In this document: piece by piece, positions 504 through 46,214 of the stretch
How positions within the stretch are numbered: position 1 is the first letter of the stretch
Layout: the number at the start of each line of letters is the position of its first letter
Assembly (NCBI GenBank): GCA_963798845.1
Contig: CAWCUS010000001.1
Span: 384,001 to 448,000 of the forward strand
Source: an uncultured Gemmatimonadales bacterium
GTDB lineage: Bacteria > Gemmatimonadota > Gemmatimonadetes > Longimicrobiales > RSA9
DNA length: 64,000 nucleotides
Reading direction: 5' to 3'
The notes under the pieces: generated by a model
Told to the model about the DNA's origin: nothing
The model's database searches: none
What the model saw: the letters and a program-made list of their open reading frames with translations, nothing else
Program-made: the position numbers and the translations under genes

Positions 504-1640
504 TTATCGGCGCCGCGAGGCCTCCAGCGCCGCCAGCACCAGGGCGTCGGGCAGCGCGTGCGTCCACTCTCCCGCACCGCCGCGCGCCGGCTCACCGGGG
601 CGCGCCACGAGCGCGTAACGGATGGCGCCGGCCCTCGCCTTCTTGTCCGATCTCGCCGCCTTCAGCACCTTTTTCGGTTCCATCCGATCGGGCACGGCCG
701 TGGGGAGCCCGAACGCGGCCAGCGCCTCGGCGATGCGGGCGCTCGTGCCCGCGGCCGTCACACCCTCACGCTCTCCGGCCGCCGCCTCCACCACCATCCC
801 GATGGCCACGGCGTCCCCGTGCGAGAGCCCGTAGCCGGAGACCCGCTCCAGCGCGTGCCCCACGGTGTGGCCGAAATTCAGCACCGCGCGCTCCCCCGCT
901 TCCAGCACGTCCCGGGCGACCACGCCCGTCTTGATCCGGACCGAGCCCGCTACCAGCGCGGCCAGCGCCCGATCGTCTCGCCGGAAGATGGCATCCGCGT
1001 CGGCCACCAGGCGATCGAGGTAGTCGACGTCGGCGATGGCGCCGTGCTTGACGGCCTCGGCGAGGCCGGCGCGCAGCTCGCTGTCCGGCAGCGTGCTCAG
1101 GAAGCGCGGGTCCACCACCACCAGGCGCGGCTGGTGGAACGCGCCGACCAGGTTCTTTCCGGCGCTCAGGTCGAGCCCCGTCTTCCCGCCGATGGAGGCG
1201 TCCACCATGGCCAGGAGCGTGGTCGGCACCTGGACGAAGGCGACTCCCCGGCCGAACGTCGCGGCGGCGAAGCCCGCCACGTCGCCGGTCACGCCCCCGC
1301 CCAGCGCGACAATGCAACCATCGCGGCCGAGGCCGAGGTCGCCCAGCGCCTCCACCAGCGCCGCCCATCGCCCAGGCGTCTTGTGCGCCTCGCCCGCACG
1401 GAGCCGCACCGCCTCGACGGCGTGCCCGGCCTCCCGAAGACGCGACAGGACGCGCTCGCCATGGAGGTCGGCGACGATGTCGTCGCAGACCAGGACGTAC
1501 TGCTGCGCCGGGACGTGGCGGCGCACCACCTCGCCCAGCCGGTCGGCGACGCCCGCGCCGATGATGATCTCGCACCGCTCCGGCGGGCGGGGCAGCACCA
1601 GCGACACCAGCGCTTCGCCGCCGGCGGTCTCCTCGATCAC
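504..1640 (-). CDS. aroB: 3-dehydroquinate synthase
   Basis: Motifs ALGGGVTGDVAGF, QVPTTLLAMVDASIGGKTG, KNLVGAFHQP, LNFGHTVGHALE; GTG start overlaps the upstream stop (GTGA). Confidence 0.95.
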   Translation of the reverse strand: MIEETAGGEALVSLVLPRPPERCEIIIGAGVADRLGEVVRRHVPAQQYVLVCDDIVADLHGERVLSRLREAGHAVEAVRLRAGEAHKTPGRWAALVEALGDLGLGRDGCIVALGGGVTGDVAGFAAATFGRGVAFVQVPTTLLAMVDASIGGKTGLDLSAGKNLVGAFHQPRLVVVDPRFLSTLPDSELRAGLAEAVKHGAIADVDYLDRLVADADAIFRRDDRALAALVAGSVRIKTGVVARDVLEAGERAVLNFGHTVGHALERVSGYGLSHGDAVAIGMVVEAAAGEREGVTAAGTSARIAEALAAFGLPTAVPDRMEPKKVLKAARSDKKARAGAIRYALVARPGEPARGGAGEWTHALPDALVLAALEASRRR

Positions 1641-2779
1641 TCCGCCCGCTGCTTCCGCCGACGGTCGAAGCCCGTCCCCAGCAGCGTCTCCCGAACCAGC
1701 CACGCCATCACCTCCTCGAAGGACCCCGTCTCCGCGTGCACGCGACGCAGACGATCCGCGCCGTTGCCCCGCTCCAGCATCGTCTCCACCCGCTCCAGCA
1801 CCCCCAGATCCCCCACCGCCGACGCCAGCTGCGCCGCGCCGTCGAGGATCCGCCGTATCGCCGGTCGCACGCCCGTCTTCCCGCTCGGGGTCTCCGGGTC
1901 CGTGAGCGCGCCGTCCAGCCCGAACCTCGCCGCGTGCCACTCGTTCTCGGTCAGGACCTCGCGCCAGACGTCCGGGCTCAGCCCCCCGGAGCCGGGCGCC
2001 TCGAGCTCCCCTTCCGCCACGCCCATGACCACGAGCCTCGCCAGCGCGGCGATCGTGGCGGCGTCTTCGAGCCGCGGGCAGACGTCCATCGCCCGGAACT
2101 CCAGCGTCGGATAGGAGAAGTGGGGACGCAGGCTCCAGTACACGTTGCCCCGGTCCTGGATCGCTTCGCTCCGCAGCAGAAGGCTGATGAACCTGCGGTA
2201 CTCCTCGTCACTTTCGAAGCGCGGCGGCACGCCGGTGTAGGGGTACTGCCGCCACAGGATCGAACGGTACGATGCGAACCCGGTGTCCTCCGCGTCCAGG
2301 AACGGTGAGCTGGCGGAGAGCGCCACCAGGTGCGGGATGAAGCCGCGAACCTGCTCCATCAGCATCGTCCGGTCGATGCGGTCCGGCACGCCCACGTGCA
2401 CGTGCATGCCGAAGATGTTGACCTCCCGGGCGATCCGGTCATGGCGCTCGACGATGGCCCGGTAGCGCTCGTCCGGGTGGATCCCCGCGCCTTCCCACGC
2501 GCTGAACGGGTGCAGCCCCGCCGCCGCGATGTCCACCCCCTCCGCCGCGGCCGTCGTGGCCGCCTGGAAGCGCTGGCGACGGAGCTCTCCCTCCACCTCC
2601 TCCACCGTCCCGCACACCGGCGTGCCGATCTCCACGGTGGTCTCGTGCAGCTCACCGCGCAGCTCGTTCGCCCAGTCCGTGGCCAGCACGTCGGACGCGC
2701 GGCTGCGCAGCGCACCCGTGTCGGGGTCCACCAGCTGGTACTCCTCCTCCACGCCCATCGTGTATTCGTGGTTGGCCAT
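1637..2779 (-). CDS. ybdK: YbdK-family carboxylate-amine ligase (glutamate--cysteine ligase 2)
   Basis: TMGVEEEYQLVD, AAGLHPFS, FGMHVHVG, ALSASSPF, DTGFASYR, PTLEFRAMD, ENEWHAARFG motifs. Confidence 0.9.
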   Translation of the reverse strand: MANHEYTMGVEEEYQLVDPDTGALRSRASDVLATDWANELRGELHETTVEIGTPVCGTVEEVEGELRRQRFQAATTAAAEGVDIAAAGLHPFSAWEGAGIHPDERYRAIVERHDRIAREVNIFGMHVHVGVPDRIDRTMLMEQVRGFIPHLVALSASSPFLDAEDTGFASYRSILWRQYPYTGVPPRFESDEEYRRFISLLLRSEAIQDRGNVYWSLRPHFSYPTLEFRAMDVCPRLEDAATIAALARLVVMGVAEGELEAPGSGGLSPDVWREVLTENEWHAARFGLDGALTDPETPSGKTGVRPAIRRILDGAAQLASAVGDLGVLERVETMLERGNGADRLRRVHAETGSFEEVMAWLVRETLLGTGFDRRRKQRAE

Positions 2780-2889
2780 GCTTCTCGGGGCTCACCGTGT
2801 CGGGTGCCGCAGGGTACGGCTCTGAGGGTTTCGGTGGCAAATGCGGGGCCCGGAGAAACAGCGAGGCGCGCGCTCCACACACGAGCCTC

Positions 2890-2917
2890 TTCCATTCCGA
2901 AATCGCTTCATTATATT
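2890..2917 (+). promoter_or_regulatory. Putative sigma70-type promoter of the ATP-grasp/KamA operon
   Basis: AT-rich patch; TTCCAT (2890-2895), 16 bp spacer, TATATT (2912-2917). Confidence 0.4.
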
Positions 2918-2937
2918 CTCTTCCCGACGGAGCACAG

Positions 2938-2967
2938 GTGCTCAAACGGGGCGCTCCGGCCATATGA
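2938..2967 (+). CDS. Putative leader peptide MLKRGAPAI
   Basis: GGAG at 2929-2932, then GTG CTC AAA CGG GGC GCT CCG GCC ATA TGA; lies just upstream of a terminator hairpin. Confidence 0.45.
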   Translation: MLKRGAPAI

Positions 2968-2984
2968 CGGAACGGCTAACAACC

Positions 2985-3010
2985 GCGTCTCTTTGCAGGG
3001 GCGCTTTTTT
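2985..3010 (+). terminator. Intrinsic terminator-like hairpin in the operon leader (attenuator)
   Basis: GCGTCTCT-TTGC-AGGGGCGC stem-loop followed by TTTTTT, 20 nt upstream of the ATG at 3031. Confidence 0.65.
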
Positions 3011-3030
3011 CATGGGGTACGAACGAACCG

Positions 3031-4065
3031 ATGCCGCTGAATATCGGGCTCGCGTACAATCAGAAGCCTGACCCGGAGGACGAGCCTCCCGGTACCAGGC
3101 GTCCCCTCGACGACCGATTCGCCGAGTGGGACGACCCCTCGACAATCGCGGCCGTCGAGGCTGCGCTCGCCGAAGCCGGCGATGTGATCCGGCTCGAAGC
3201 CGATGAGGACTTCCCCGCCCGCCTCCGGGCGACCCGGCCCGACATCGTCTTCAACATCGCGGAGGGGCTGAACGGCCCCAACCGGGAAGCGCACGTCCCG
3301 GCCATCTGCGAGTTCTTCGGCATTCCCTACACCGGCAGCGACCCCCTCGCCCTGGCGCTCAGCCTGGACAAGCGGCGGGCCAAGGACGTGTTCCGTGCCG
3401 CCGGGGTCCCGACGCCCGCGGGCGTGTCGGTGTCGCGGCCGGAAGAGCGGCAGCTGGCGCTGCACGTGCCGATCCCGGCCATGGTGAAGCCGCTCTTCGA
3501 GGGCTCCAGCAAGGGCATCCCCGAGAGCGCGCTGTGCGAGAGTCCGGACGACGTGCTGGCACGCGTGGACGCCGTCCTGGAGGAGTACGGCCAGCCGGCG
3601 CTCGTGGAGACCTTCCTCCCCGGCCGGGAGTTCACGTGCGCCGTGCTGGGCAACGGTGACGGCGCGCGGGCGCTCCCGCTGGTGGAGATCCGGTTCGACG
3701 CGCTGCCGGCGGGCGCGAAGCCGATTTACGGCTACGAGGCGAAGTGGGTCTGGGACACGCCCGACCGGCCGCTCTCCATTTTCAGCTGCCCCGCGGCGGT
3801 GGATGGGGCGCTGGGGTCGCTGATCGAGGGCACTGCGGTCGCCGCGTTCACCGCGCTCGGCTGCCGCGACTGGGCCCGGGTCGACCTCCGCCTCGACGAC
3901 GCCGGGCTCCCCCACGTGCTGGAGATCAATCCGCTCCCCGGCGTCCTGCCGGATCCGGAGCAGAATTCCTGCTACCCCAAGGCGGCACGGGCGGCCGGAA
4001 TGGACTACGGCCAGATGATCCGGGCCGTGCTCGATGCTGGGCTGAACAGGTACGGCCTGCGATGA
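3031..4065 (+). CDS. D-alanine--D-alanine ligase-like ATP-grasp enzyme 1
   Basis: VFNIAEG, IPYTGSD...SLDK, KPLFEGSSKGI, ETFLPGREF, YEAKW, ARVDLRLD, EINPLPG. Confidence 0.9.
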   Translation: MPLNIGLAYNQKPDPEDEPPGTRRPLDDRFAEWDDPSTIAAVEAALAEAGDVIRLEADEDFPARLRATRPDIVFNIAEGLNGPNREAHVPAICEFFGIPYTGSDPLALALSLDKRRAKDVFRAAGVPTPAGVSVSRPEERQLALHVPIPAMVKPLFEGSSKGIPESALCESPDDVLARVDAVLEEYGQPALVETFLPGREFTCAVLGNGDGARALPLVEIRFDALPAGAKPIYGYEAKWVWDTPDRPLSIFSCPAAVDGALGSLIEGTAVAAFTALGCRDWARVDLRLDDAGLPHVLEINPLPGVLPDPEQNSCYPKAARAAGMDYGQMIRAVLDAGLNRYGLR

Positions 4066-5099
4066 GGATCGCCGTCGCCTACGACCGCGCCGCCGACGCC
4101 CGCGAGGGCGACGCCCCGCACTCCGGCCGTGACGACGCGGCCGTCCGGGACCGCCCCGCTTCCTCCCCCGCCCCCGCGCTCCCGGAGCGATCCGCCGCCG
4201 CGCCCGATGTGGCCGGGGTGCGCGAGGCGGTGGACGCCGTGGTCGAGAGCCTGGGGCGCCTCGGCCACGCCGCGTTCCCCGTCGCAGTGCACGCGCCGCT
4301 GGAGCGGTTCCTCACCCGATTGAGAGGCGTGGAGCTGGTCTTCAACCTCGCCGAGGGGCTCGACGGACGGGCGGAGGACGAGCCGCGCCTCGCCGCCCTC
4401 ATGGAGCTCTCCGGGCACCCCGTCACCGGCGCGTCCTCGGACACGCTGGCGCTGTGCCGGCGCAAGGACCGGGTCAACACCCTGGCCGCCAGCCGCGGGC
4501 TGGCCGTTCCGCCCTGGGCGGTGGCCCGGCCAGGCCGGCCCGGATGCCCGCTCCCCGGCTGGACGATCTTCCCGGCCATCGTCAAGCCGGTGGACGAGGA
4601 CGGGTCCGTCGGCATCCACGGGGACTCCGTGGTGGAGGACGCGCTCGAGCTCACCGCCTCGCTCGAGCGCGCGGACGGCGAGGTCCTCGTCCAGGCCTTC
4701 GTCGCCGGTCGCGAGTTCAACGTCGGCTTCGTCGGTGAAGAGGCCCTGCCGCTGGCGGAGATCGTGTTCGCCGGAACGCAGCGGGTGGTGAGCTACGCTG
4801 CCAAGTGGGCACCGGGCTCGGCCGACGACCTGTCGACCCTCCCCGTCTGCCCCGCCCGCGTCACCGCCACGTTCCACGACGACGCCGTGGCGCTCGCCCG
4901 TGAGGCCTGGGGCGCCGTGGGCGGACACGGGTACGGCCGCGTGGACCTCCGCACGAACGCAGATGGTCGGCTGAACCTGCTGGACGTCAACCCGAACCCC
5001 GACCTGGCTCCCTCCGCCGGGCTGGCGCGCATGGCGCGCGTGGCCGGCTGGGGCTTCGACGATCTGGTGGCACGGATCGTGGAGGAAGCGGTCGCATGA
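4062..5099 (+). CDS. D-alanine--D-alanine ligase-like ATP-grasp enzyme 2
   Basis: ATGA overlap with the previous gene; VFNLAEG, KPVDEDGSVGI, GREFNV, SYAAKW, YGRVDLR, DVNPNPDL. Confidence 0.85.
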   Translation: MRIAVAYDRAADAREGDAPHSGRDDAAVRDRPASSPAPALPERSAAAPDVAGVREAVDAVVESLGRLGHAAFPVAVHAPLERFLTRLRGVELVFNLAEGLDGRAEDEPRLAALMELSGHPVTGASSDTLALCRRKDRVNTLAASRGLAVPPWAVARPGRPGCPLPGWTIFPAIVKPVDEDGSVGIHGDSVVEDALELTASLERADGEVLVQAFVAGREFNVGFVGEEALPLAEIVFAGTQRVVSYAAKWAPGSADDLSTLPVCPARVTATFHDDAVALAREAWGAVGGHGYGRVDLRTNADGRLNLLDVNPNPDLAPSAGLARMARVAGWGFDDLVARIVEEAVA

Positions 5100-5608
5100 C
5101 TATCAAAACCCTTCAAAACGAGATGGCGACCGTGTTGCGGGCGCTGGAGCCGGGAGACCGGCCGGCGCTCGAGCGGCTGGTCCGATCCGTGGAGCTGTTC
5201 AGCGCCGCGGAGAAGGACGTGGCGATGGAAGTGCTGGACGGATACATGGAGCACCCCGGGAAGGACTACCACGCGCTGGGCGCCTTCACCCACAGTGGCG
5301 ACCTCCTGGGCTACGCGTGCTACGGCCCCACGCCGTGCACCGAGGGCACCTGGGACCTCTACTGGATCGCCGTGTCCGGGGAGTCCCGGGGCCGAGGCAT
5401 CGGAACCCTGCTGATGGAGGAGATTGAACGAAGGCTCGTCGAACAACACGCTCGACTCGTGCTCATCGAGACCGCCTCGCGCGCCGACTACGCCCCTACC
5501 CGGGCGTTCTACGAGCGGCGCGACTACCAGGTGGTCGCACGGGTCCCGGATTTCTATGCGCCGGGCGACGATCGCGTGATCTTCGCCCGCACCTTCCCCA
5601 GCGTTTGA
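5096..5608 (+). CDS. GNAT family N-acetyltransferase
   Basis: LYWIAVSGESRGRGIGTLL acetyl-CoA-binding motif A, TRAFYERR; ATGA coupling. Confidence 0.9.
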   Translation: MTIKTLQNEMATVLRALEPGDRPALERLVRSVELFSAAEKDVAMEVLDGYMEHPGKDYHALGAFTHSGDLLGYACYGPTPCTEGTWDLYWIAVSGESRGRGIGTLLMEEIERRLVEQHARLVLIETASRADYAPTRAFYERRDYQVVARVPDFYAPGDDRVIFARTFPSV

Positions 5609-5622
5609 CCGACGAGAGAGAA

Positions 5623-7092
5623 ATGTCCAACTGGCAAGAGACCCTGAGGCAGAGCGTCACGACGGTAGACGATCTGATCGACCGCTTCGGTGCCGAGAAC
5701 GTGGACCGTGAAGCGGTCGAGAAGGCCATCGAGAAGTTCAACCTTCGCATCACCCCGGCCGCGCTTGCGCAGATCAAGGCGCCGGGCGACTGGGCATGGA
5801 ACCAGTACGTACCCACGGGCGCGGAGAACGAGGTCGTGGACGGGATCGTCGACTCGCTGGACGAAGACGCGGACTCGCCCGTCCCGAACATCACGCACCG
5901 CTACCCGGACCGCGTGCTGTTCCTGGTCTCGCCGGTGTGCTCCACCTACTGCCGGTTCTGCACGCGCCGACGGAAGGTGGGCGACCCGGAGAAGATCCCG
6001 CTGAACCAGTTCGACGCCGCGTTCGCATACCTGCGCGAGCATACGGAAGTGCGCGACGTGGTGCTCTCCGGCGGCGATCCGTTCATGCTGAGCGACCGGC
6101 GAATCGAGTACTTCCTCTCGACACTGCGCGCCATCCCGCACATCGAGATCATCCGAATCCACTCCCGGGTGCCCAACCACCTCCCCGAACGTGTCACGCC
6201 CGAGCTGGCGGACATGATCAGGAAGTACCACCCGGTGTACGTGAACGTGCACTTCAACCACCCGGACGAGCTCACGCCGGAGTCCATGAAGGCGCTCGGC
6301 CTGCTGGCAGACGCCGGCATCCCGCTCGGTTCCCAGAGCGTGCTGCTCAAGGGCGTGAACGACGACCCGGCGATCATGAAGCGGCTGATGCAGCGGCTCC
6401 TCGTCGCCCGCGTGAAGCCGTACTACATCTACCAGGCGGACGTGGTGGCCGGCGGCGAGCACTTCCGCACGTCCGTGCAGAAGGGGATCGAGATCATCCA
6501 GGCGATCCGCGGCTGGACTTCCGGGCTCGGCGTCCCGCACTACGTCATTGACGCCCCCGGCGGCGGCGGCAAGATCCCGATCCTGCCCGAGTACGTGCAG
6601 GCGGTCACCGACAGCGAGATCGTGCTCCGCAACTACGCGGGCGAGGAGTTCCGCTACCCGCTCCCGCAGGAGCCTGCGCGCGTCGGCAACGGGTGCGACA
6701 TCCCGAGCATCCCGAGCCGCATCGCCGCCCGCACCGCCCGCTCCGGCGGCGTCGCCGGCGCCGGCAAGAACGAGAACGGGCGGGCGCGGCACAAGAAGGC
6801 GGCGAGCGCCCAGGCCAACGCCAACCGCAGCGGCGGGGCCGCAGGCCGGTCCAGCCGCCCGTCCAATGGGAACGGCCGCAAAGCCGACCGCGCGATCGGC
6901 ACGTCCGGGCCGAGCAACGGCGGCGGAAATGGCGGACCGAGGATATCCTCTGACGGCGGCGCGGGCTCGAACGGCAACCGCCAGCCCAGGACGAACGGCA
7001 ACGGGCACCGGAACGGCCGCGGGAACGGCCACGCCGACCCGGCTCAGATCACCATCGAGACGCTGGGCGGCATCGTGCCGATGGACGTGTAG
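5623..7092 (+). CDS. kamA: KamA-family radical SAM enzyme (lysine 2,3-aminomutase-like) with a low-complexity C-terminal tail
   Basis: THRYPDRVL, CSTYCRFC (CxxxCxxC), LSGGDP, HFNHPDE, QSVLLKGVND, YYIYQAD, DAPGGGGKIP (PLP lysine). Confidence 0.9.
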   Translation: MSNWQETLRQSVTTVDDLIDRFGAENVDREAVEKAIEKFNLRITPAALAQIKAPGDWAWNQYVPTGAENEVVDGIVDSLDEDADSPVPNITHRYPDRVLFLVSPVCSTYCRFCTRRRKVGDPEKIPLNQFDAAFAYLREHTEVRDVVLSGGDPFMLSDRRIEYFLSTLRAIPHIEIIRIHSRVPNHLPERVTPELADMIRKYHPVYVNVHFNHPDELTPESMKALGLLADAGIPLGSQSVLLKGVNDDPAIMKRLMQRLLVARVKPYYIYQADVVAGGEHFRTSVQKGIEIIQAIRGWTSGLGVPHYVIDAPGGGGKIPILPEYVQAVTDSEIVLRNYAGEEFRYPLPQEPARVGNGCDIPSIPSRIAARTARSGGVAGAGKNENGRARHKKAASAQANANRSGGAAGRSSRPSNGNGRKADRAIGTSGPSNGGGNGGPRISSDGGAGSNGNRQPRTNGNGHRNGRGNGHADPAQITIETLGGIVPMDV

Positions 7093-7106
7093 CCTCGCGG
7101 ACGCGT

Positions 7107-7380
7107 CCGAGCGCTGGCGTCGGCCCGGCGGCCGGCGGAGGGTTGGCTTAGCCCGGCGGCGGCGGAGCGCTGGCCCCGGCCCGGCGGCGCCCGAGCGCTG
7201 GCCCCGGCCCGGCGGCCGGCGGAGCGCTGGCGTCGGCCCGGCGGCGGCCGAGCGCTGGCGTCGGCCCGGCGGCCGGCGGAGGGTTGGCTTAGCCCGGCGG
7301 CGGCGGAGCGTTGGCTTAGCCCGGCGGCGCCCGAGCGCTGGCCCCGGCCCGGCGGCGCCCGAGCGCTGGCGTCGGGCGGG
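7107..7380. repeat. Tandem array A, about 10 imperfect 27-29 bp units
   Basis: Units like GAGCGCTGGCGTCGGCCCGGCGGC / GAGGGTTGGCTTAGCCCGGCGGC start right after the kamA stop; unit lengths are not all multiples of 3. Confidence 0.9.
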
Positions 7381-7414
7381 AACCTGGCAAACGCCCGTCG
7401 TCGCCAGCCCTTCT

Positions 7415-7467
7415 GAGGCGCCTCGGGGGTTTCCCGCGCTATGTCCTGGAAACTCCCGAAGCGCCTC
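7415..7467. other. Long stem-loop between arrays A and B
   Basis: GAGGCGC-C-TCGGGGGTTTCC ... GGAAACTCCCGA-A-GCGCCTC, about 20 bp stem. Confidence 0.6.
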
Positions 7468-7561
7468 CAGCAGCCAGATCGATTGGGGGATTCCCCGGAC
7501 CAAGGGCAGGAAAGGCCCCAGACGCACCCAAACGCGCCGCGGGCACGGGAGTTCTCCGCAG

Positions 7562-7890
7562 CAGGCGGGCTCCGCCTTCGAGGCCAGGCGGGCTCCGCCT
7601 TCCCGGCGCCAGGCGGCCTCGGCCTTCGAGGCCAGGCGGGCTCCGCCTTCCCGGCGCCAGGCGGCCTCGGCCTTCGAGGCCAGGCGGGCTCCGCCTTCGC
7701 GGCCAGGCGGGGTCGGCGTTCGAGGCCAGGCGGGCTCCGCCTTCGAGGCCAGGCGGCCTCGGCCTCTGCGGCCAGGCGGCCTCGGGGCTTCCGCGCCAGG
7801 CGGCCTCGACCTCCGCGGCCAGGCGGCCTCGGGGCTTCGGCGCCAGGCAGCCTCGGGGCTTCCGCGCCCGGCGGGCTCGGCCTTCCGCGC
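7562..7890. repeat. Tandem array B, about 14 imperfect 23-25 bp hairpin units
   Basis: Consensus CAGGCGGGCTCCGCCTTCGAGGC (AGGCGG-GCT-CCGCCT hairpin), increasingly degenerate to the right. Confidence 0.9.
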
Positions 7891-9320
7891 TAGGCGCCCT
7901 CGTCCAGTCTGATGAGCGCCGGGGCCAACACGGTCGCGGGGTCGCCGCCGGCCGGGGTTTCAACGACACGGACCACGGGGCGTCCCTTGACGGTCATGCG
8001 GTCCACGGTCCCGGCCCGCCCGGGGCGGGCGGCGAGGACGCGGCGGTAGTCGGTGGCGAAGCGGTCGGCGGAGGCGTCGTCGTCCCACACGGAGTACCAG
8101 ACCAGCGCCTGTCGGCCGTCGGGGCCGTCCAGGAGCGCGTAGCGGTCACCGTCCCAGCCGCGGGCGAAGTCGACGCCGGCCGCGCCCGGCCGAGCGCCCT
8201 CCCCATTCCGTGGGGCGCCGGCCGCGCCCGGCCGAGCGCCCTCCCCATTCCGCCGGGCGCCGGCCGCCCGGGGCGAACCGTCGGCGGCGGCCTCATCTCC
8301 GAGGTACTCGTCGAGGATGATGGACGTCTCGAGCTCGCCGAAATCGTTGGCGTAGGCCACGCTCCAGCCGTCGCCGGGAGCGCCCAGGTAGAGCGTGGTG
8401 GGCGCGTCGCGCGAGTCGATGAAGCGGTCCACGGGTCGCAGGACCTGCTCGGTGGACTGCGGAAGGAGGTCGCCGAAGGGGATGGGGATGTCGTCGCCCC
8501 GGCGGTGGCGAAAAAGCGCCTGCACGAACACGGCGCCGCCCATGTAGGGGAAGATGAGCGTCTCCCGGATGATGCGAGGGGCGCGCTGGAAGACGGGGTA
8601 GCGGTCGTTATGCCCCTCGATGGCCGGACGAAGGAGGCCGCGCATGTCAGGGAGGGTGCCCGGGTCGACGCGCTTGCCGGTTGCCCGCGCGGTCTGGAGG
8701 GCGGCCATGACCAGCGTCGCCTGCCCCTCGGCCGCGGCCTGCGCGGCCATCTGGCGGTCGTTGCCGCGCTCCCGCGACACCAGGGAGTCCAGGTCGGTGT
8801 ACTGGTCCTGGAGCGCGTGCACCAGCTCGTGGGCGACCACCGGCGCAGCGGAGTCCGCGGCCACCCCCGCCAGCACGTAGAGCCGGTCCGACTTGGGATC
8901 GTAGTAGCCCACCACCTGCTCGGCGTACAGCTCCAGCAGGAGCACGCGCAGGTCCATGGTGTCCGGGATCAGCCCGAGCGCGCGGTACACCCGCTCGGTC
9001 CCGCGCAGCTCCTCCGGGCCCATATCCTCGTCGAGCTGCGCGTCGATGAACGCCCGCGCGTCCGAGCGGGACTGGAGCGCGTACGCCACCGGGTGCTGCA
9101 CGGGCAGCCCGCTCGCCTTGGAGATCTCCGGGACCAGCGCGTCGATCATGGCCGCGAGCCCCGCCGAGTCCAGGGGCGCCCCCGGCGTCGAGCCCGCGCG
9201 GGCGACGCCGCCGCCCGCCTCCGAGCGCTGTCGGGCCGCCGCGCCGCCCCAGCTGTCGCAGGCGGCCTGGGACAGCGCGAGGGCCGCCACGGCGACGGCC
9301 GCGATGCTACGCCCCGTCAT
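7890..9320 (-). CDS. Putative secreted or lipoprotein zinc metallopeptidase (HExxH)
   Basis: Signal peptide ending LSQAAC; VVGYYDP...VVAHELVHALQDQ...AAAEGQAT zincin pattern; LPQSTEQVL, GWDGDRY. Confidence 0.7.
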   Translation of the reverse strand: MTGRSIAAVAVAALALSQAACDSWGGAAARQRSEAGGGVARAGSTPGAPLDSAGLAAMIDALVPEISKASGLPVQHPVAYALQSRSDARAFIDAQLDEDMGPEELRGTERVYRALGLIPDTMDLRVLLLELYAEQVVGYYDPKSDRLYVLAGVAADSAAPVVAHELVHALQDQYTDLDSLVSRERGNDRQMAAQAAAEGQATLVMAALQTARATGKRVDPGTLPDMRGLLRPAIEGHNDRYPVFQRAPRIIRETLIFPYMGGAVFVQALFRHRRGDDIPIPFGDLLPQSTEQVLRPVDRFIDSRDAPTTLYLGAPGDGWSVAYANDFGELETSIILDEYLGDEAAADGSPRAAGARRNGEGARPGAAGAPRNGEGARPGAAGVDFARGWDGDRYALLDGPDGRQALVWYSVWDDDASADRFATDYRRVLAARPGRAGTVDRMTVKGRPVVRVVETPAGGDPATVLAPALIRLDEGA

Positions 9321-9933
9321 CCTGGGCCTCGCGACGCTGCAGCGCCTCGCCGTCGGGATCCTCCGGTCCCGGCAGCCCCTCGCCATCCTCGTCCTCCCGC
9401 CCCTGCAGCGCCTCGCCATCCTCGTGCTCCCGGCCCAGCAGCGCTTCGCCCCGCCCCAGCGCGCGCATCCCCGGCGTCGGCGACGCTGCGGGTTCCTCGC
9501 GCAGCGACCGTCCGGTGGCCGGGTCCAGCAACTCCGGATCCAGCTCGAGGAGCGGCACCAGCACGAAGGGCCGGTCTCGCATCCGGGGATGCGGGATCGT
9601 GAGCCCGGGGCGGTCGATCCGCCGGTCATCGTAGAGCAGGATGTCGACGTCGAGCGTGCGCGGGCCGTTGCGTACGGTCCGCTCGCGCCCGCGCTCTCGT
9701 TCCAGGCGGCGCGCCAGGACGAGCAGCGCGTCGGGCGCCAGGGCAGTGTCGACGCGGGCCACCATGTTCAGGAAGCGGGGCTGCTCCGTGTAGCCCACCG
9801 GCTCGGTCTCGTAAACGGTCGACATGCCGGTGAGCTCGACGTCGGGCTCGCGGGCGAGGGCGCGGAGTGCGTGAGCCAGGTGACGCTCGCGCTCGCCGAC
9901 GTTGGTGCCGAGGCCGAGCCAGGCGGTGGCCAC
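9307..9933 (-). CDS. folK: 2-amino-4-hydroxy-6-hydroxymethyldihydropteridine diphosphokinase
   Basis: AWLGLGTNVG, YETEPVG, FLNMV, GPRTLDVDILLY, LTIPHPRMRDRPFVLVPL. Confidence 0.95.
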   Translation of the reverse strand: MATAWLGLGTNVGERERHLAHALRALAREPDVELTGMSTVYETEPVGYTEQPRFLNMVARVDTALAPDALLVLARRLERERGRERTVRNGPRTLDVDILLYDDRRIDRPGLTIPHPRMRDRPFVLVPLLELDPELLDPATGRSLREEPAASPTPGMRALGRGEALLGREHEDGEALQGREDEDGEGLPGPEDPDGEALQRREAQDDGA

Positions 9934-9943
9934 GTCGCCGCTA

Positions 9944-10333
9944 TCAGGCGCGGCCGTAGCGGTCCTGGAGCCGGACGACGTCGTCGAGCTCGGGCGTGGA
10001 CGCTTCCAGGATGTCCACGTCCGTGATCGCCGTCATGCGGTGCACCGTGCCGGGCGTGACGTGATAGCTCCCGCCCGTCTCCAGCGGCACTTCCGCCAGC
10101 GCCTCCACGCTGGGACCGGCCTCGAACTTCATGCGTCCGGTGAGCAGGTGGATGGTCTCGTCCTTCCGCTCGTGGTACTGGAGCGACAGGGCGTGGCCCG
10201 CCTTCACGTGCAGGATCTTGCCCACGTAGCGCCCGGTGTGCGCCCAGATCAGCTCATGGCCCCACGGCTTGTCCACGCGCACGGGCTGCGTCAGACCGCC
10301 CTTTTCCGCCGCCTTCCCGGCCGGCCCGCTCAT
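9944..10333 (-). CDS. Cupin domain protein (mannose-6-phosphate isomerase-like)
   Basis: VDKPWGHE, LSLQYHERKDET, PGTVHRM, DVVRLQDRYGR. Confidence 0.85.
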   Translation of the reverse strand: MSGPAGKAAEKGGLTQPVRVDKPWGHELIWAHTGRYVGKILHVKAGHALSLQYHERKDETIHLLTGRMKFEAGPSVEALAEVPLETGGSYHVTPGTVHRMTAITDVDILEASTPELDDVVRLQDRYGRA

Positions 10334-11574
10334 GCGACGAACCTCACGCGCGCGAACCGCCGCTTCCCCCGGCGGAAGACCTTCTCGTCCCCTTCATCCG
10401 CTATCACCATGGCGTTCCGATCCTCCACCGAGTCTCCGTCCACGGCCACCGCTCCCTGTTCGATGAGTCGCGCCGCCTCGCTGTTCGACGACGCCAGCCC
10501 CGCCACGACGAGGACGCCGGCCACCCAAACCTGCCCGTCCTCGTGACGGACGCGCTCGTCGCCGAGCCGGACGGCGATCTCCGGCATCTCGTCCGGGTCC
10601 TCCTTCTTCCGGAAGACCTGGTCGAAGTGCGCTTCTCCCGCCTTCGCGCCATTCTCCCCGTGGTACGTGGCCGTGATCAGCCTGGCCAGCGCCCGCTTGG
10701 CCGCGTACGGCTCGTCGCCGGCGTGGCCAAGGGCGGTCTCCAGGGCGTCGCCCGTCAGCCCGCTGGCCATCCGGTACCACTCGCCGATGAGCGTGTCGGG
10801 GATCGACATGGTCTTCCCGTACATCTCCTCCGGCGGCTCCGTGAGGCCGATGTAGTTGTCGTACGACTTCGACATCTTCTGCTCGCCATCCGTGCCCCGG
10901 AGCAGCGGCATGATCAGGCAGACCTGGGGCTCCTGCCCGTATCGCTCCTGAATGGTCCTCGCCACAAGCAGGTTGAACTTCTGGTCGCTCCCGCCCAGCT
11001 CCACGTCGGCGCCCAGCGCCACCGAGTCGTACGCCTGCATGAGCGGGTACATGAGCTCCATCATGGAGATCGGGCGGTTCTCCTTGAGCCGCTTCTCGAA
11101 GTCGTCCCGTTCCAGCATGCGGGCGACCGTGTAGCCCGCCGTGAGCTTGAGGATGTCCGCCAGGTTCAGCGGTGCCAGCCACTTCGAGTTCGGCTCCACG
11201 CGCACGCGGTCCACGTTCAGGATACGCCCCACCTGCTCCGCGTACGTGGCCGCGTTGGCCTCGATCTCCTCCGGCGACAGCGCCGGCCGGGTCTCGCTCC
11301 GCCCGCTCGGGTCCCCCACCCGGGCCGTGTAGTCGCCCACCACGAACACCACGCTGTGGCCCAGCTCCTGGAACGTGCGGAGCTTCCGCATGCTCACGGC
11401 GTGGCCGATGTGCAGGTCCGGCCGCGTGGGGTCGAAGCCCTGCTTGATGATCAGGGGCGTCCCCTGCTCCGAGCTCCGCTCCAGCTTCCGGACCAGGTCG
11501 ACTTCGGGGATGATCTCCAGCGCGTCGCGCCGGATCTCGTCCATCTGCTCGTTCACGGGTGGGAACTTCGGCAC
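10330..11574 (-). CDS. tyrS: Tyrosine--tRNA ligase
   Basis: GFDPTRPDLHIGH (HIGH), YPLMQAYD, GGSDQKFN, KMSKS, C-terminal S4 domain; GTG start chosen. Confidence 0.97.
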   Translation of the reverse strand: MPKFPPVNEQMDEIRRDALEIIPEVDLVRKLERSSEQGTPLIIKQGFDPTRPDLHIGHAVSMRKLRTFQELGHSVVFVVGDYTARVGDPSGRSETRPALSPEEIEANAATYAEQVGRILNVDRVRVEPNSKWLAPLNLADILKLTAGYTVARMLERDDFEKRLKENRPISMMELMYPLMQAYDSVALGADVELGGSDQKFNLLVARTIQERYGQEPQVCLIMPLLRGTDGEQKMSKSYDNYIGLTEPPEEMYGKTMSIPDTLIGEWYRMASGLTGDALETALGHAGDEPYAAKRALARLITATYHGENGAKAGEAHFDQVFRKKEDPDEMPEIAVRLGDERVRHEDGQVWVAGVLVVAGLASSNSEAARLIEQGAVAVDGDSVEDRNAMVIADEGDEKVFRRGKRRFARVRFVA

Positions 11575-11698
11575 GTCTCTTCCCTTCGTGCGGTCGGGGC
11601 CGCGTCCACTGCCGTTCCTCTCCGGCGCCGTCGCGCGCGCGGGTGTCGGAACCGGGGAAGGTGCCGGGACCGTGCAGGGAGTGTCAAGCCGGTGGGGA

Positions 11699-11933
11699 AG
11701 GGACGAAGGGGACGAAGGGCACGACGTTAAGGCCTGACACGAAGCCCACGAAGAGACGAAGGGAACCGGGCTCGAGCGGGCGCGAGGGCGTGGCAGGCGG
11801 CTGGGGCCCGGCAGCGTCCGGGGAAAACAGAATGGATCGCCCCGCGCGTATCCGGGCGGCGAACCATCCTGGCCCGGAATGCGGCGGGGCTGCCGCTCTT
11901 CGTGCCCTTCGACCCTACGAGCCCTTCGTGTCA
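11699..11933. repeat. Inverted pair of short (about 9 bp) ACGAAG-type repeat clusters
   Basis: GGGACGAAG GGGACGAAG...TGACACGAAG CCCACGAAG AGACGAAG (11699-11763) mirrored by CTCTTCGTG CCCTTCGAC...CCCTTCGTGTCA (11897-11933). Confidence 0.65.
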
Positions 11934-11989
11934 CGCCGTTCGGGCGGCCGGGCACACGCCCACATCCGCACCCGAGCCCCCCGGGCCGG

Positions 11990-12793
11990 CTACCACCCCC
12001 CCTTGATCCCCCTGAACATCAGCGGCCGCAGCCGTTTCCCCTTCTCCACGAAGTCGATGGTGTACGCCCGGATCTGCGGCCGCACCGGGCCGCCGTAGAA
12101 CTCGATGGCATAGAGCTCAGCGGGCTGTACCCCGAAGAGCATCTCCTCGGGCACGCGACGATCGTCGAGGAATACCGCGGGCTTCACCACGTTGCCGCGG
12201 TACCGCAAGCACAGCTTCCACGGCAGCGCGGTATCGCATGGCACGGGGAGGTACGGGCTGCGCCACCGGGCGGCGGTCAGCGCGTCGCTCGCCCCAACGC
12301 GCACCAGCTCCTCCCGCTCGATGGCCTTCACGGTTACCGGCGCCAGCCGCCGCCGCTCCTCCAGCCGCCTCGCCGTGACCCGGATCCGCTCGAGCTTCAC
12401 CGGCTGCGGCAGCAGGCCGATGGTGAGCATGTCCAGGTCCGCCACGCGCGTCCGCTCCTCCCAGGTGGCATACCCGAGCATCCGGATCCGCCACAGCTGC
12501 TCGCTCGCCGGCAGCCCACGCAGGAGGAAGCGGCCGTCGTCGTTCGTCACGGTGGTCCGGCCGAGCTCCGGCAGGCTCACGAGGGCGCCCGGGATGGCGG
12601 TGCCGCTCTGGATGTCCACCACGACGCCCGCGACCTCGATGGTGTCCGCCGGGATCGTGCGCTGTGCCCCGACCGCCGCCGGTGCCATGGCGAGCGCAGC
12701 CGTCGCCAGCACGGCCTGCCAGGAACGGGAGCGAGGCGATGTCGCACGGCTCGTCGCCGGTCGCCGGGTGGGTGAGGCGAGGAAGGTCAGCAT
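11990..12793 (-). CDS. Secreted protein with a carboxypeptidase-regulatory-like domain and a plug-like C-terminus
   Basis: Signal peptide (AVGAQ), GVVVDIQSGTAIPGALV...TNDDGRF...RMLGY; PAVFLDD...ELYAIEFY. Confidence 0.7.
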   Translation of the reverse strand: MLTFLASPTRRPATSRATSPRSRSWQAVLATAALAMAPAAVGAQRTIPADTIEVAGVVVDIQSGTAIPGALVSLPELGRTTVTNDDGRFLLRGLPASEQLWRIRMLGYATWEERTRVADLDMLTIGLLPQPVKLERIRVTARRLEERRRLAPVTVKAIEREELVRVGASDALTAARWRSPYLPVPCDTALPWKLCLRYRGNVVKPAVFLDDRRVPEEMLFGVQPAELYAIEFYGGPVRPQIRAYTIDFVEKGKRLRPLMFRGIKGGW

Positions 12794-12926
12794 GGCATGG
12801 CTCCGTTCCGAACGTGGGCCCGGGCAGTCCCCGGTGTCAAGCACCACGCCGGCCGTGCCCGCGCTGGGGCGTCGGTATATCTTTGGTGTGAGCCGCACCG
12901 TTTCCACGCCCAACCGAAGGAGGCGT

Positions 12927-13457
12927 ATGGCTCGCCAGCAGAGTCGTTCCTCGGCCCCATCCGACGCGGAGCTGCGCGCGCAGCTCGGCCCCGCCCACTC
13001 AGCCTACCGCGCCCTCCTCGACGGCCACCCGGCGCTGACGCCCGAGTGGAAGTGGTACGGGAAGAAGAACGGCTGGAGCCTCAAGCTCCTGGACGGGAAG
13101 CGGAACCTGTGCTTCATCGGTCCGCACGAAGGCTACTTCAACGCCGGGTTCGTGTTCGGTCATGATGCGGTCAACCGCGCGCTGGAGAGCGAGTCGCTTC
13201 CGGCCGACATCAAGCGCCTGATCGCCGATGCGCCCACGCTCCCCGAAGGCCGGGGCTTCCGCCTCGAGGTCCGGGACGAGTCGCTGCTCCCGGCCATCTC
13301 GCACCTCCTCGAAATCAAGCGCGGCCCGAAGCCCGCGACGGCTGCGCACGAGCGCGCCGCCCAGGGCCACAGCGCCCGGGAAGCCGCGGTGCCCAGGCCG
13401 CCGAGCGCGCCCCGGGCGGACCTGCGCATGCCGTCGCACCGGCGAGGACGGGGCTAG
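12927..13457 (+). CDS. DUF3788-like protein
   Basis: RBS AAGGAGG; EWKWYGKKNGWSLK...RNLCFIGP...FVFG...EGRGFRLEV pattern. Confidence 0.7.
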   Translation: MARQQSRSSAPSDAELRAQLGPAHSAYRALLDGHPALTPEWKWYGKKNGWSLKLLDGKRNLCFIGPHEGYFNAGFVFGHDAVNRALESESLPADIKRLIADAPTLPEGRGFRLEVRDESLLPAISHLLEIKRGPKPATAAHERAAQGHSAREAAVPRPPSAPRADLRMPSHRRGRG

Positions 13458-13972
13458 AAGGCGCGGCCGGAGGGCAGCGCACCGGCGCCCGCTTCTGCTT
13501 CCCGGAGGAGCGGCGGCAGCGGCTCGACCGTGACCCGGACCTCGGCGCCCGAGCCATCCCTGCCGTAGACCCGGATCCGCCCGGTTCCCGACTCCTCGAA
13601 CACGAGCGCGGCCGTGTGGACGATCTCCACCGGCATCATGGTGCAGTAGCCGCCGCGATGGTGGTTGTCGTACGGCGTGATCGTGGCGACGAGGCCATCC
13701 ACCCCCGTCTCCGTGCGCGCGCGTCCCCAGCAGCCGTCCGGCCCCGTGGTCGTCACGGTGACCTCGAACACGCTCCCGACCCCGACCGTGTCCGGAGCTT
13801 CGACGGACCGCACGCTCCCGAGAACCTCGTCCGTCTCGTCCACAAGCCCGCACCCGGCGGCCAGGAGCGCGGCGGCGCAGGCGGCGATCACTGTCGGGCG
13901 CACGCTCGTCCGCCCCGCCCCGCCCCTCGCGGACCCAGCCGTCCTCCTGCCCCGTCTCGCTTCACCGGTCAT
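13454..13972 (-). CDS. Hypothetical lipoprotein
   Basis: Lipobox LLAAGC; Cys pair (PDGCW, GYCTM) in a beta-rich body. Confidence 0.6.
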   Translation of the reverse strand: MTGEARRGRRTAGSARGGAGRTSVRPTVIAACAAALLAAGCGLVDETDEVLGSVRSVEAPDTVGVGSVFEVTVTTTGPDGCWGRARTETGVDGLVATITPYDNHHRGGYCTMMPVEIVHTAALVFEESGTGRIRVYGRDGSGAEVRVTVEPLPPLLREAEAGAGALPSGRAF

Positions 13973-45650: not shown

Positions 45651-46214
45651 CTACCTCACCCGCTCTATGTACGTCCCGCCTTCCGGATCCACGCGCACCG
45701 TCTCGCCCTTGTCGACGAAGGCGGGGACCTGGATGGTGACGCCATTCTCCAGCTTGGCGGGCTTGGTCACGGAGGTGCGGGTGTCGCCGCGCACGCCGGG
45801 CTCGGTCTCCACGACCTCGAGCTCGAGTGTGCGCGGGAGCTGGACTCCGAGCGGGGAGCCTTCGAGGAACTCGACCTGGACGTTCATGTTCGGGATCAGC
45901 CACTGAGCGGAGTCGCCGAGGGTGTCGTCGCCGATGGGGAACTGCTCGAAGGTCTGATTGTTCATGAAGTAGTGGTGATGGCCGTCATGGTACAGGAACT
46001 GGAGCTCCTGCGTCATCATCTCGGCCTTCTCCACCGTGTCGGCGGACCGGAACCGGTGCTCGAAGATGGTCCCCGTGAGGATGTTCTTCAGCTTGGTCTG
46101 CATGTACGCCGGGCCCTTCCCCGGCTTGATGTGCTGAAACTCCATGACGCGGCAGGGCTCACCCTCGTGCATGATCACCGTGCCGCGGCGGAGCTGTGAG
46201 GCCGACATCGCCAT
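45651..46214 (-). CDS. efp: Elongation factor P
   Basis: [35 protein letters not shown]...VPAFV. Confidence 0.97.

Follow-up and report, generated by a model that had tools for sequence, protein, structure and literature searches.

A conserved operon of two ligases, an acyltransferase and an aminomutase

In the genome of an uncultured Gemmatimonadales bacterium, two ligase genes bearing the database name D-alanine--D-alanine ligase stand beside genes for an acyltransferase and an aminomutase, which raises the question of what these four enzymes make together. The window analyzed here is a stretch of 64,000 nucleotides, and all four genes lie on its + strand. G1 (3031–4065, 344 aa) encodes a Ddl-like ATP-grasp ligase, G2 (4062–5099, 345 aa) a second, more divergent Ddl-like ATP-grasp ligase, the third gene (5096–5608, 170 aa) a GNAT acyltransferase, and the fourth (5623–7092, 489 aa) a KamA-family radical SAM/PLP aminomutase. 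Read directly from the sequence, ATGA stop/start overlaps join G1 to G2 (4062–4065) and G2 to the GNAT gene (5096–5099), and an alternative TTG start of the KamA gene at 5605 overlaps the GNAT stop. An in-frame NTGA overlap was present in related loci at G1/G2 (58 of 75) and at G2/GNAT (56 of 67). The four genes form a conserved, closely coupled unit, probably one translationally coupled operon, which confirms the four co-directional genes, the first three overlapping, reported in a preliminary description of this DNA. As the GC3 filter flagged the G1 and KamA frames only, the G2 and GNAT calls rest on family matches and conservation.

Synteny was assessed in a sample of 80 related loci, with each gene judged in those loci long enough for it. 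The order G1 to G2 was found in 74/74 evaluable loci and G2 to GNAT in 69/69, with a KamA-family gene downstream in 53/61, and these counts exclude a chance arrangement. Gene order in homologous clusters, which the preliminary description had singled out as a check, is thus conserved. The proposed four-gene unit stood in part: G1-G2-GNAT is the invariant core, but no KamA gene was present within up to 6.4 kb downstream in 8 of the 61 loci, and in 9 (of 61) only a divergent KamA paralogue, 28–34% identical, occupied its place. The triad may therefore not strictly need beta-lysine.

At least 570 relatives were found in species genomes. Among the best 120 matches, G1 identity across Gemmatimonadota was 64–90%, and the gene order was constant in two orders of the phylum; the operon is maintained across this soil phylum. 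No transporter, regulator or stress-linked gene was conserved beside the cluster in the related loci.

Natural fusions link the parts of the operon to each other. Proteins joining G1 and G2 in operon order (P0414–P0416, P0419) were found together with G1-KamA fusions (P0417, P0418), KamA-ligase fusions (P0139, P0175, P0231, P0186) and, among G1 relatives, ligase-GNAT fusions (P0265, P0271). The KamA-ligase Atlas cluster has 202 members, most commonly from Omnitrophota, and the double-ligase proteins bear names from Myxococcota and Bdellovibrionota.

One cluster of G1 relatives, at 47% identity, contains a protein whose name comes from a Nitrososphaerales archaeon. A Thioflavicoccus plasmid carries a Ddl-like ligase beside KamA and the diamino-acid genes for DABA transaminase, SbnA and SbnB, and a relative of about 40% identity on a rhizobial plasmid is located some 0.7 kb upstream from a gene of the CapA family.

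Two Ddl-fold ligases with probably remodelled substrate pockets

Both ligases matched Pfam Dala_Dala_lig_C (G1, E 2.7e-29; G2, E 4.3e-25), and G1 matched the E. coli DdlB structure 1iov with E 1.6e-32. The AF2 model of G1 (pLDDT 88.7) had Ddl enzymes as its top Foldseek matches (TMt 0.81–0.84), while that of G2 (pLDDT 88.6) contained a disordered insert at residues 20–45 (pLDDT <50). The fold (TM 0.79–0.84, normalised on the target) and the ATP/Mg catalytic residues are shared with the Ddl family (DdlA/DdlB, VanA-type), so acyl-phosphate chemistry would be expected. In G1 the ATP/Mg residues were invariant in 79/79 orthologues, and G2 keeps K97, K144, E187, K215, R255, D257 and N272 (E. coli DdlB numbering throughout). 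Given these residues and a predominance of E at position E270, G2 seems to be a working enzyme and not an inactive partner, and both ligases look active from their retained ATP/Mg residues. The quoted motifs EINPLP (G1) and DVNPNP (G2) are both present, but DVNPNP does not serve as a hallmark of G2: D for E at E270 is the minority state (11/72 orthologues, against E in 61/72). In the suggestion that G2 is a partner subunit, pairing with G1 is indirectly supported by the G1-G2 fusions, whereas the kept catalytic residues speak against an inactive partner.

The substrate-site residues differ from those of Ddl. At D-Ala-site positions of DdlB, H63 is replaced by E and Y216 by W invariantly in both ligases (72/72 G2 orthologues for each). 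G1 also has C at L282; in G2, G276 is replaced by D, S281 by A and L282 by G, each in 67/72 orthologues, and position S150 holds A in 58, G in 9 and S in 5 of 72. The N-terminal GGxSxE of Ddl gives way to an AYN...AEWD region. Judged from the alignment to DdlB, the added acidic residues would fit a cationic substrate. The best NCBIfam Ddl model gave G1 177.1 bits and G2 reached 119.4 bits, against a cut-off of 243, and the scores lie under every Ddl and Van NCBIfam cut-off. G2 shares 32.5% identity with G1 and 33% with DdlB, and it formed a separate clade (SH-aLRT 99). In the tree, four true Ddls split from the other 105 rows with SH-aLRT 100, the outgroup being small and all proteobacterial. 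By residues, cut-offs, tree and genomic context, G1 and G2 are not canonical D-Ala-D-Ala ligases; a ligase phylogeny against true Ddl was a check named in the preliminary description.

A predicted lysine-type aminomutase and a GNAT distinct from AblB

The KamA protein matched LAM_C and Radical_SAM in the Pfam/NCBIfam search, and PDB 2A5H with E 1.1e-113. The motifs CSTYCRFC, YYIYQAD and VIDAPGGGGK noted previously were all recovered, and the equivalents of 2A5H C125/C129/C132, R134, D293, D330 and K337 are kept and invariant in 42/42 orthologues, as is every lysine 2,3-aminomutase substrate or cofactor residue examined. The protein scored 271.1 bits on the KamA family model TIGR00238, above its cut-off of 199.2. 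Its best NCBIfam match was AblA (TIGR03820; 434.6 bits, below the cut-off of 525.4), followed by the glutamate model (370), arginine aminomutase (305.8; cut-off 600) and EpmB (222.1; cut-off 369.3). Judged by residues and model ranking, KamA is a predicted lysine-type aminomutase, in agreement with the earlier reading of these residues. A lysine 2,3-aminomutase-like core (residues 1–355) is followed by a G/N/R/K-rich tail of 135 aa, and the equivalent of the Zn-site Cys268 is D. Tails in orthologues vary from 3 to 135 aa and are for the most part basic.

The GNAT protein matched Pfam Acetyltransf_1 (E 4.8e-12) and contains an acetyl-CoA-type RGRGIG motif. No NCBIfam model reached its cut-off, the best being RimI (43 bits; cut-off 86.4), and AblB was absent from the NCBIfam matches. 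The closest solved structure was 2R7H (E 1.2e-32, residues 15–164), an uncharacterised structural-genomics entry titled 'putative D-alanine N-acetyltransferase of GNAT family', which is a clear homologue over 150 residues sharing the block YGPTP.TEGT.DLYWIAV. The one paper found with the code 2R7H, PMC4942678, deals with another protein. An assignment as AblB was rejected on these matches, and the analogy to AblA/AblB drawn previously does not extend to the GNAT.

The AblA/AblB system, by which methanogens and some bacteria make N-epsilon-acetyl-beta-lysine, likewise links a lysine 2,3-aminomutase-type enzyme genetically to a GNAT, and KamA resembles AblA in its best-scoring model and lysine-binding residues. 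The present system differs in a KamA that falls below the AblA equivalog cut-off and is without the Zn/C-terminal domain, in a single-domain GNAT of 170 aa, in two obligatory ATP-grasp ligases and in the order ligase-ligase-GNAT-KamA.

Proposed pathway and its alternatives

A literature search returned no description of this ligase-ligase-GNAT-KamA system, in keeping with the earlier view that the pathway is uncharacterised. We tentatively propose that the four enzymes of the operon form a dedicated pathway whose product contains beta-lysine in amide linkage and is N-acetylated. We infer its substrates, the sequence of its reactions, what it yields and what purpose this serves in the cell as follows. 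KamA would convert L-lysine to beta-lysine (3,6-diaminohexanoate). G1 and G2, as Ddl-fold ATP-grasp ligases with remodelled pockets, probably act as a pair; each would convert a carboxylate to its activated acyl phosphate before forming an amide bond, so that beta-lysine becomes part of a conjugate resembling a di- or tripeptide. The GNAT would finally acetylate a leftover free amine. The expected product would be small, charge-balanced and N-acetylated, probably a beta-lysine compound that is so far undescribed. Against this pathway stands the fact that none of the four enzymes attains an NCBIfam equivalog cut-off.

By analogy, a cytoplasmic protective or compatible solute is the most plausible role. 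N-acetylglutaminylglutamine amide (NAGGN) is reportedly synthesized by Ngg, a GNAT-ATP-grasp fusion, with AsnO. Both systems would combine GNAT and ATP-grasp logic, NAGGN being an N-acetylated dipeptide solute, and the ligase-GNAT fusions among G1 relatives recall Ngg. Here, however, the ATP-grasp enzymes are Ddl-type, no amidotransferase gene is adjacent, and a beta-amino-acid-forming aminomutase is added. The sole outside hint on a solute role is a table in PMC7824335, in which Gemmatimonas phototrophica has no entry for betaine or osmolyte-transport genes, and nothing positive comes from it.

The ligases could instead modify a protein or peptide by adding beta-lysine or amino acids to it. 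In the boldest form, EF-P or another translation factor would be beta-lysylated independently of EpmA, and the GNAT would acetylate the adduct. ATP-grasp enzymes that modify proteins exist (RimK, LysX), the weak best family match of the GNAT is RimI, the EF-P encoded in the window has a lysine-tipped loop (KPGKGPA), and no EpmA-like class II synthetase paralogue was present among the scanned ORFs. EpmA/EpmB also pair a KamA-family beta-lysine step with ligation to an amine, but the ligases here are ATP-grasp enzymes, not LysRS paralogues, and KamA scores far higher on AblA than on EpmB, where it is under the cut-off. Moreover, efp lies about 38.6 kb from the cluster and in 0/80 related loci, Actinobacteria EF-Ps with a PGKGP loop reportedly function unmodified, and the Ddl-fold ligases among the solved structures returned use small-molecule substrates in every case. 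We consider protein modification unlikely.

Equally unlikely is a secondary metabolite with biological activity, namely a beta-lysine peptide that acts as an antibiotic or antimetabolite, with the GNAT serving self-protection, as acetyltransferases acting on the beta-lysine moiety of streptothricin do. KamA-family enzymes are paired with amide ligases in blasticidin S and streptothricin-type pathways, and the Thioflavicoccus plasmid cluster resembles specialised metabolism. The blasticidin S-type route, with its arginine 2,3-aminomutase, shares a KamA-family beta-amino acid and a following amide bond; KamA here, however, scores about half the arginine aminomutase cut-off, and the operon is compact and phylum-wide, with no further biosynthetic genes. 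Such conservation with a fixed order is what core metabolism typically shows, whereas biosynthetic clusters are patchy, and an adjacent exporter or resistance transporter was not found.

Somewhat less probable again, the ligases might iterate to make a storage or surface polymer of beta-lysine or mixed amino acids, comparable to cyanophycin or poly-glutamate. Two paralogous, recurrently fused ligases would suit alternating additions, and the basic KamA tails and the CapA-family gene near the rhizobial relative point the same way. Yet the conserved surroundings included neither a primer protein of the polymerase type nor a gene for membrane export or a hydrolase, Ddl-type enzymes are not known for processivity, and a capping GNAT is better suited to a small molecule.

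A cell-wall role, with G1 and G2 as alternative D-Ala-D-X ligases giving an unusual peptidoglycan stem terminus, would agree with the Ddl fold, the complete ATP/Mg machinery and the database name. It is very improbable given the sub-cut-off Ddl/Van scores, the separation from the four true Ddls of the small, all-proteobacterial outgroup, and the invariant H63 and Y216 replacements. As claimed previously, no Mur/dcw families were found among the picked ORFs (13 in 504–14104 and 24 in 15476–63888), and the partners are KamA and a GNAT, not Mur ligases. The relatives also include the Nitrososphaerales-named protein, from an order that is not known to have murein.

Least probable is a graspetide-like RiPP with radical SAM tailoring: two ATP-grasp enzymes plus a GNAT mirror MdnB/MdnC/MdnD of microviridin, and tandem repeats (7109–7375 and 7562–7902) lie just downstream of KamA, but that region is non-coding by GC3 and is reduced in length or missing in close relatives, the cluster has no small ORF as a conserved neighbour across both orders, the ligases are Ddl-type, and KamA has a complete amino-acid aminomutase site.

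Elements upstream of the operon

A terminator scan placed a GC-rich hairpin with a T6 run at 2985–3010 (+ strand), the T-run ending 20 nt before the ATG of G1 at 3031; the scan listed as many sites for this region as shuffling would lead one to expect. A hairpin (dG <= -10) with a T-run precedes the G1 start in 47/76 loci, at about 15–40 nt in most and 66–125 nt in four, with stems that differ between loci. The leader fold gave z = -1.87, and Rfam returned no match in 2500–8200. Since the upstream gene is divergent, the hairpin is not the terminator of that gene, and it is a possible leader or attenuator.

An intergenic box, CTTCCATTCC...ATTATATT (2889–2917, strand undecided), is conserved in an alignment of 7 loci that have a divergent YbdK neighbour in common and is promoter-like; a sigma-70 scan gave no site in 2600–8000. 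In the window this neighbour is a YbdK/GCS2 carboxylate-amine ligase gene (1637–2779, - strand; Pfam GCS2 E 1.9e-53; TIGR02050 275.6 bits, cut-off 176.4). It lies upstream in 8/80 loci, or 7/66 among those with at least 1500 bp upstream, and is at most a lineage-specific accessory outside the core.

An operon conserved across Gemmatimonadota

The window has a G+C content of about 72%, and its closest protein relatives bear Gemmatimonadota or Longimicrobiales names. Four genes lie on the forward strand between 3031 and 7092, which bears out the arrangement given in the preliminary description, and every motif quoted there was found in the window proteins. G1 (3031-4065, +) and G2 (4062-5099, +) each encode a Ddl-like ATP-grasp ligase, followed by an acyltransferase gene, GNAT (5096-5608, +), and a KamA-family gene (5623-7092, +). 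ATGA stop/start overlaps at 4062-4065 (G1/G2) and 5096-5099 (G2/GNAT) were read directly from the sequence. If the KamA-family gene began instead at a TTG (5605), its start would overlap the stop of GNAT, and the ATG at 5623 is favoured because the GNAT-KamA spacing in orthologues is mostly +4 to +20 nt.

To compare gene order, relatives were sought in a scan with one genome per species, which found at least 570; the best 80 loci were kept, 76 of them bearing Gemmatimonadota-type titles. The tblastn results showed that the gene order is conserved elsewhere, with G2 after G1 in all 74 loci long enough to judge and GNAT after G2 in all 69. Based on predicted starts, NTGA-type stop/start overlaps in frame with the next gene join G1 to G2 in 58 of 75 loci and G2 to GNAT in 56 of 67. 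The slot after GNAT could be assessed in 61 loci with room: 44 carry a LAM-type gene directly after GNAT, 9 carry a paralogue, and 8 have no KamA-family gene within the flank by tblastn. The fixed part is the ligase-ligase-GNAT core, and KamA is less constant than this core.

The operon is a real, conserved pathway of known enzyme kinds, and apparently an uncharacterised one. No published description of this cluster was found in a search outside which most subscription journals lay. The available portions of four related papers deal with ablAB in Pelobacter (PMC3543383), the gene contexts of LAM versus YjeK (PMC2821294) and a Na+ riboswitch before ablA (PMC9337991), or hold a table row for Gemmatimonas (Table 1 of PMC7824335), and these portions do not mention ATP-grasp partners.

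No accessory gene beside the cluster is conserved across the related loci; the upstream neighbours in Gemmatimonadales are ThyX, FAD oxidase and DUF116 genes. In the window, a YbdK-type carboxylate-amine ligase gene (1637-2779, -) diverges from the operon. It was considered as a fifth core member and rejected, because by tblastn no more than 8 of the 80 loci, the closest ones, have it upstream of the operon. Beyond it lies AroB (504-1940, -), considered as a mycosporine-type link and likewise rejected: it scores above the cut-off for a true aroB (344.8 vs 305 bits) and rarely adjoins the cluster (4 of 80 loci by tblastn, plus one further upstream AroB-like ORF identified by Pfam in the related locus L052). 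Elsewhere in the window, a large ORF (28429-31857, -) carries domains of two kinds, glycoside hydrolase family 3 (NagZ-like) and beta-lactamase/transpeptidase-like.

G1 and G2 fall outside the Ddl clade

Proteins G1 and G2 match Pfam PF07478 (Dala_Dala_lig_C; E 2.7e-29 and 4.3e-25), and among solved structures they match Ddl and Van enzymes only (Ddl, E 1.6e-32 and 9.6e-29). The best Foldseek matches of their AlphaFold models (pLDDT 88.7 and 88.6) are all Ddl, with TM-scores of at most 0.84 normalised on the target. G1 and G2 share with canonical Ddl the ATP-grasp Ddl fold and the ATP/Mg residues, but they differ from it in family scores, substrate-site residues and tree placement. Every curated Ddl cut-off lies well above their scores, and against the best NCBIfam Ddl model (NF002378, cut-off 243) G1 reaches 177.1 bits and G2 119.4. 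Pairwise identities among G1, G2 and E. coli DdlB are nearly the same (32-33%).

Further, 79 G1 and 72 G2 orthologues were aligned with E. coli DdlB and Paracoccus Ddl. DdlB residues K97, K144, E187, K215, R255, D257 and N272 are invariant in G1 (79/79) and G2 (72/72), and the E180 position holds Q in 67 of 72 G2 sequences. E270 is E in 79/79 G1 and 61/72 G2 proteins and D in the other 11/72 G2, which makes DVNPNP, previously read as a meaningful trait of G2, a minority variant. Among the residues that we take to form the DdlB substrate site (H63, S150, Y216, G276, S281 and L282), H63 is replaced by E and Y216 by W in every G1 and G2 orthologue. G1 keeps S150, G276 and S281 and has C for L282; in G2, S150 becomes A, G or S (58, 9 and 5 of 72), and G276, S281 and L282 become D, A and G, each in 67 of 72. 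Given that the ATP/Mg residues are kept while Ddl substrate-site residues are replaced, G1 and G2 appear to be functional ATP-grasp ligases whose pockets differ from the Ddl pocket. Judged by this alignment, the acidic replacements (H63 to E in both ligases, G276 to D in G2) would fit a cationic diamino substrate.

A phylogenetic analysis was carried out as a quick IQ-TREE search of 109 rows, two of which (the G1-KamA fusion proteins P0417 and P0418) were mis-sliced to their KamA part and form a spurious long branch. The small, all-proteobacterial outgroup of four true Ddls (E. coli DdlA and DdlB, Paracoccus and Sinorhizobium) split from the other 105 rows with an SH-aLRT of 100, which in this quick tree places G1 and G2 outside the Ddl clade. 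G2 forms its own clade (99), and its sister (91) is made up of C-terminal halves from fusions in which the N-terminal half is G1-like. In a second fusion type, which includes a Myxococcus protein, the C-terminal half is G1-like and the N-terminal half comes from a third clade. Public databases label these ligases D-alanine--D-alanine ligase, an annotation that our results suggest is wrong for the G1/G2 family.

KamA most likely supplies beta-lysine

The KamA protein aligns over 360 residues to a lysine 2,3-aminomutase, that of Clostridium subterminale (2A5H, E 1.1e-113). Its highest-scoring model is the AblA equivalog TIGR03820 (434.6 bits, cut-off 525.4), it exceeds the cut-off of the KamA family model TIGR00238 (271.1 vs 199.2), and the glutamate, arginine and EpmB aminomutase models all score it lower than AblA does. 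The CxxxCxxC cysteine triad and the equivalents of the substrate residues R134, D293 and D330 and of the PLP lysine K337 (2A5H numbering) are invariant in 42/42 KamA orthologues, while the equivalent of the Zn-site Cys268 is lost, being D in 34/42. Compared with LAM/KamA/AblA enzymes, catalytic and substrate residues are thus kept, but the clostridial C-terminal Zn-binding/multimerisation domain is missing and a variable tail with at most one Cys takes its place. Orthologue tails are 3-135 aa long and mostly basic; those of the Gemmatimonadales type are short and K/R-rich, many ending in RRKSA or KRKTA. The longest, that of the window (6688-7092, +; residues 356-489; 135 aa), is G/N/R/K-rich, of low complexity and ends in IVPMDV. 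Judged by these residues and scores, KamA most likely supplies beta-lysine from L-lysine.

The paralogue that takes the place of the LAM-type gene after GNAT is 28-34% identical to KamA. It lies, for instance, at 10673-12040 of the related locus L029 (455 aa) and likewise in eight other Gemmatimonadales loci. P0121, an example of this protein, matches 2A5H (E 2.8e-42), with D293 and D330 retained. Despite this match, the L029-type paralogue falls below the cut-off of all NCBIfam KamA-type models, TIGR00238 included, and has no Pfam match at E <= 0.001.

GNAT is not of the AblB type

None of the NCBIfam models, which presumably include one for AblB, was reached by GNAT at its cut-off. AblB is absent from the six NCBIfam matches obtained at E <= 0.01, which are headed by RimI (43 bits vs 86.4), and the single close solved relative is 2R7H (E 1.2e-32), which is uncharacterised. 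The analogy with AblB drawn earlier was therefore abandoned, and in this respect the operon differs from the AblA/AblB system. It is also set apart from the NAGGN system (Ngg/AsnO) by gene layout: Ngg is a GNAT-ATP-grasp fusion whereas the window's genes are separate, and no amidotransferase family, such as an AsnO type would represent, was found among the scanned operon neighbours.

Natural fusions and relatives beyond the phylum

The G1 family is large: at E <= 0.001 G1 matches 17032 representative clusters, and at E <= 1e-30 it still matches 1252 (clustered at 50% identity). Natural fusions were found among the best G1 matches: G1-G2 fusions in operon order (P0414-P0416, P0419), the G1-KamA fusions P0417 and P0418, KamA-ligase or ligase-KamA fusions (P0139, P0175, P0231, P0186), and ligase-GNAT fusions whose GNAT belongs to a different subfamily (P0265, P0271). 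One Atlas cluster of KamA-ligase fusions has 202 members, most commonly from Omnitrophota, and double-ligase proteins bear Myxococcota and Bdellovibrionota names. At 47% identity, one cluster related to G1 includes a protein that bears the name of a Nitrososphaerales archaeon, and Bacteroidota, Acidobacteriota, Chloroflexota, Thermodesulfobacteriota and Bacillota have feature-based look-alikes.

On the Thioflavicoccus mobilis plasmid pTHIMO01 (locus L084, 6691-12172), a Ddl-like ATP-grasp ligase gene lies between genes for a DABA transaminase, SbnA and an SbnB-like cyclodeaminase and a convergent KamA-family gene, which points to another peptide pathway, of the diamino-acid or beta-amino-acid kind. 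The plasmid neighbourhoods in which Aquisphaera and Deinococcus carry GNAT relatives proved to be unrelated contexts and were set aside, and a rhizobial ATP-grasp relative, situated upstream of a CapA-family gene at a distance of about 0.7 kb, was uninformative.

A proposed pathway to an N-acetylated beta-lysine conjugate

Both the fusions and the fixed gene order speak for a single pathway in which the aminomutase, the two ligases and GNAT take part. In the proposed scheme, KamA would form beta-lysine, G1 and G2 would most likely create one or two amide bonds in which it takes part, and GNAT would most likely acetylate a free amine, which would yield an N-acetylated conjugate of beta-lysine. 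The earlier outline is thus broadly right, apart from the AblB analogy, the meaning given to DVNPNP and the constancy of KamA. For the product, a putative role as protective solute is favoured by analogy with acetyl-beta-lysine and NAGGN. Gemmatimonadota are plentiful in dry soils, and to our knowledge their stress chemistry is barely known. If true, a conserved beta-lysine-conjugate route would provide a specific candidate metabolite of the phylum that can be tested for, extend the Ddl branch of ATP-grasp enzymes to a new substrate class and give lysine 2,3-aminomutase a new physiological use; the natural fusion proteins are ready-made constructs for biochemistry. More speculatively, and with the balance tilted against it, KamA, the Ddl-derived ligase pair and GNAT might be a widely distributed, unrecognised module (an operon in Gemmatimonadota and fused proteins in Omnitrophota, Myxococcota and Bdellovibrionota, with a Nitrososphaerales archaeon also having relatives) for a new class of N-acetylated beta-lysyl peptides, serving as a major solute of the cytoplasm or a stand-in for polyamines and possibly lying behind the drought tolerance ascribed to Gemmatimonadota.

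In a bolder variant, the ligases might beta-lysylate a protein without EpmA. An antibiotic or polymer as product fits less well than a small conjugate, given the core-like conservation across the phylum. Modification of EF-P would gain from the lysine-tipped loop KPGKGPA of the window's own EF-P, but the efp gene (45651-46232, -) is unlinked, about 38.6 kb from the cluster, and occurs in 0 of the 80 related loci, and KamA differs from the EpmA/EpmB system in reaching only 222.1 bits against the EpmB cut-off of 369.3. A cell-wall role of G1 and G2 is opposed by their low Ddl scores, replaced residues and tree position, by the archaeal relative, and perhaps by gene context, with no mur/dcw genes among the scanned window ORFs or next to the operon in those related loci that were inspected. 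A RiPP system is the weakest, as no small ORF is conserved beside the cluster: when 577 small flank ORFs (>=20 aa) were clustered, no cluster held members both from the lineage of the window and from Gemmatimonadales-type loci, and the largest cluster was the ThyX C-terminus, so that, unlike a microviridin-type graspedide system, the operon has no adjacent conserved precursor peptide gene.

Leader region and downstream repeats

A GC-rich hairpin with a T-run (2985-3010) ends 20 nt before the G1 start. It is not the terminator of the upstream gene, because that gene is divergent; perhaps it acts as an attenuator or a leader. Equivalent hairpins with differing stem sequences lie upstream of G1 in 47 of 76 loci, followed in related loci by a conserved TTTTTCATAGGGGT or TTTTTGTAGAGGG, and a conserved box, CTTCCATTCC...ATTATATT (2889-2917), is located about 100 nt upstream. 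An Rfam scan of 2500-8200 gave two chance microRNA matches only, RNAalifold did not register the hairpins on the leader alignment, and the leader fold z-score was weak (-1.87).

Downstream of the operon, two GC-rich tandem repeat arrays, non-coding as judged by GC3, occupy the gap between the convergent KamA and Hvo_1808-like genes: 28 bp in 9.5 copies (7109-7375), and 23/48/71 bp in 13.8/7.3/4.8 copies (7562-7902). This gap is much shorter in close relatives.
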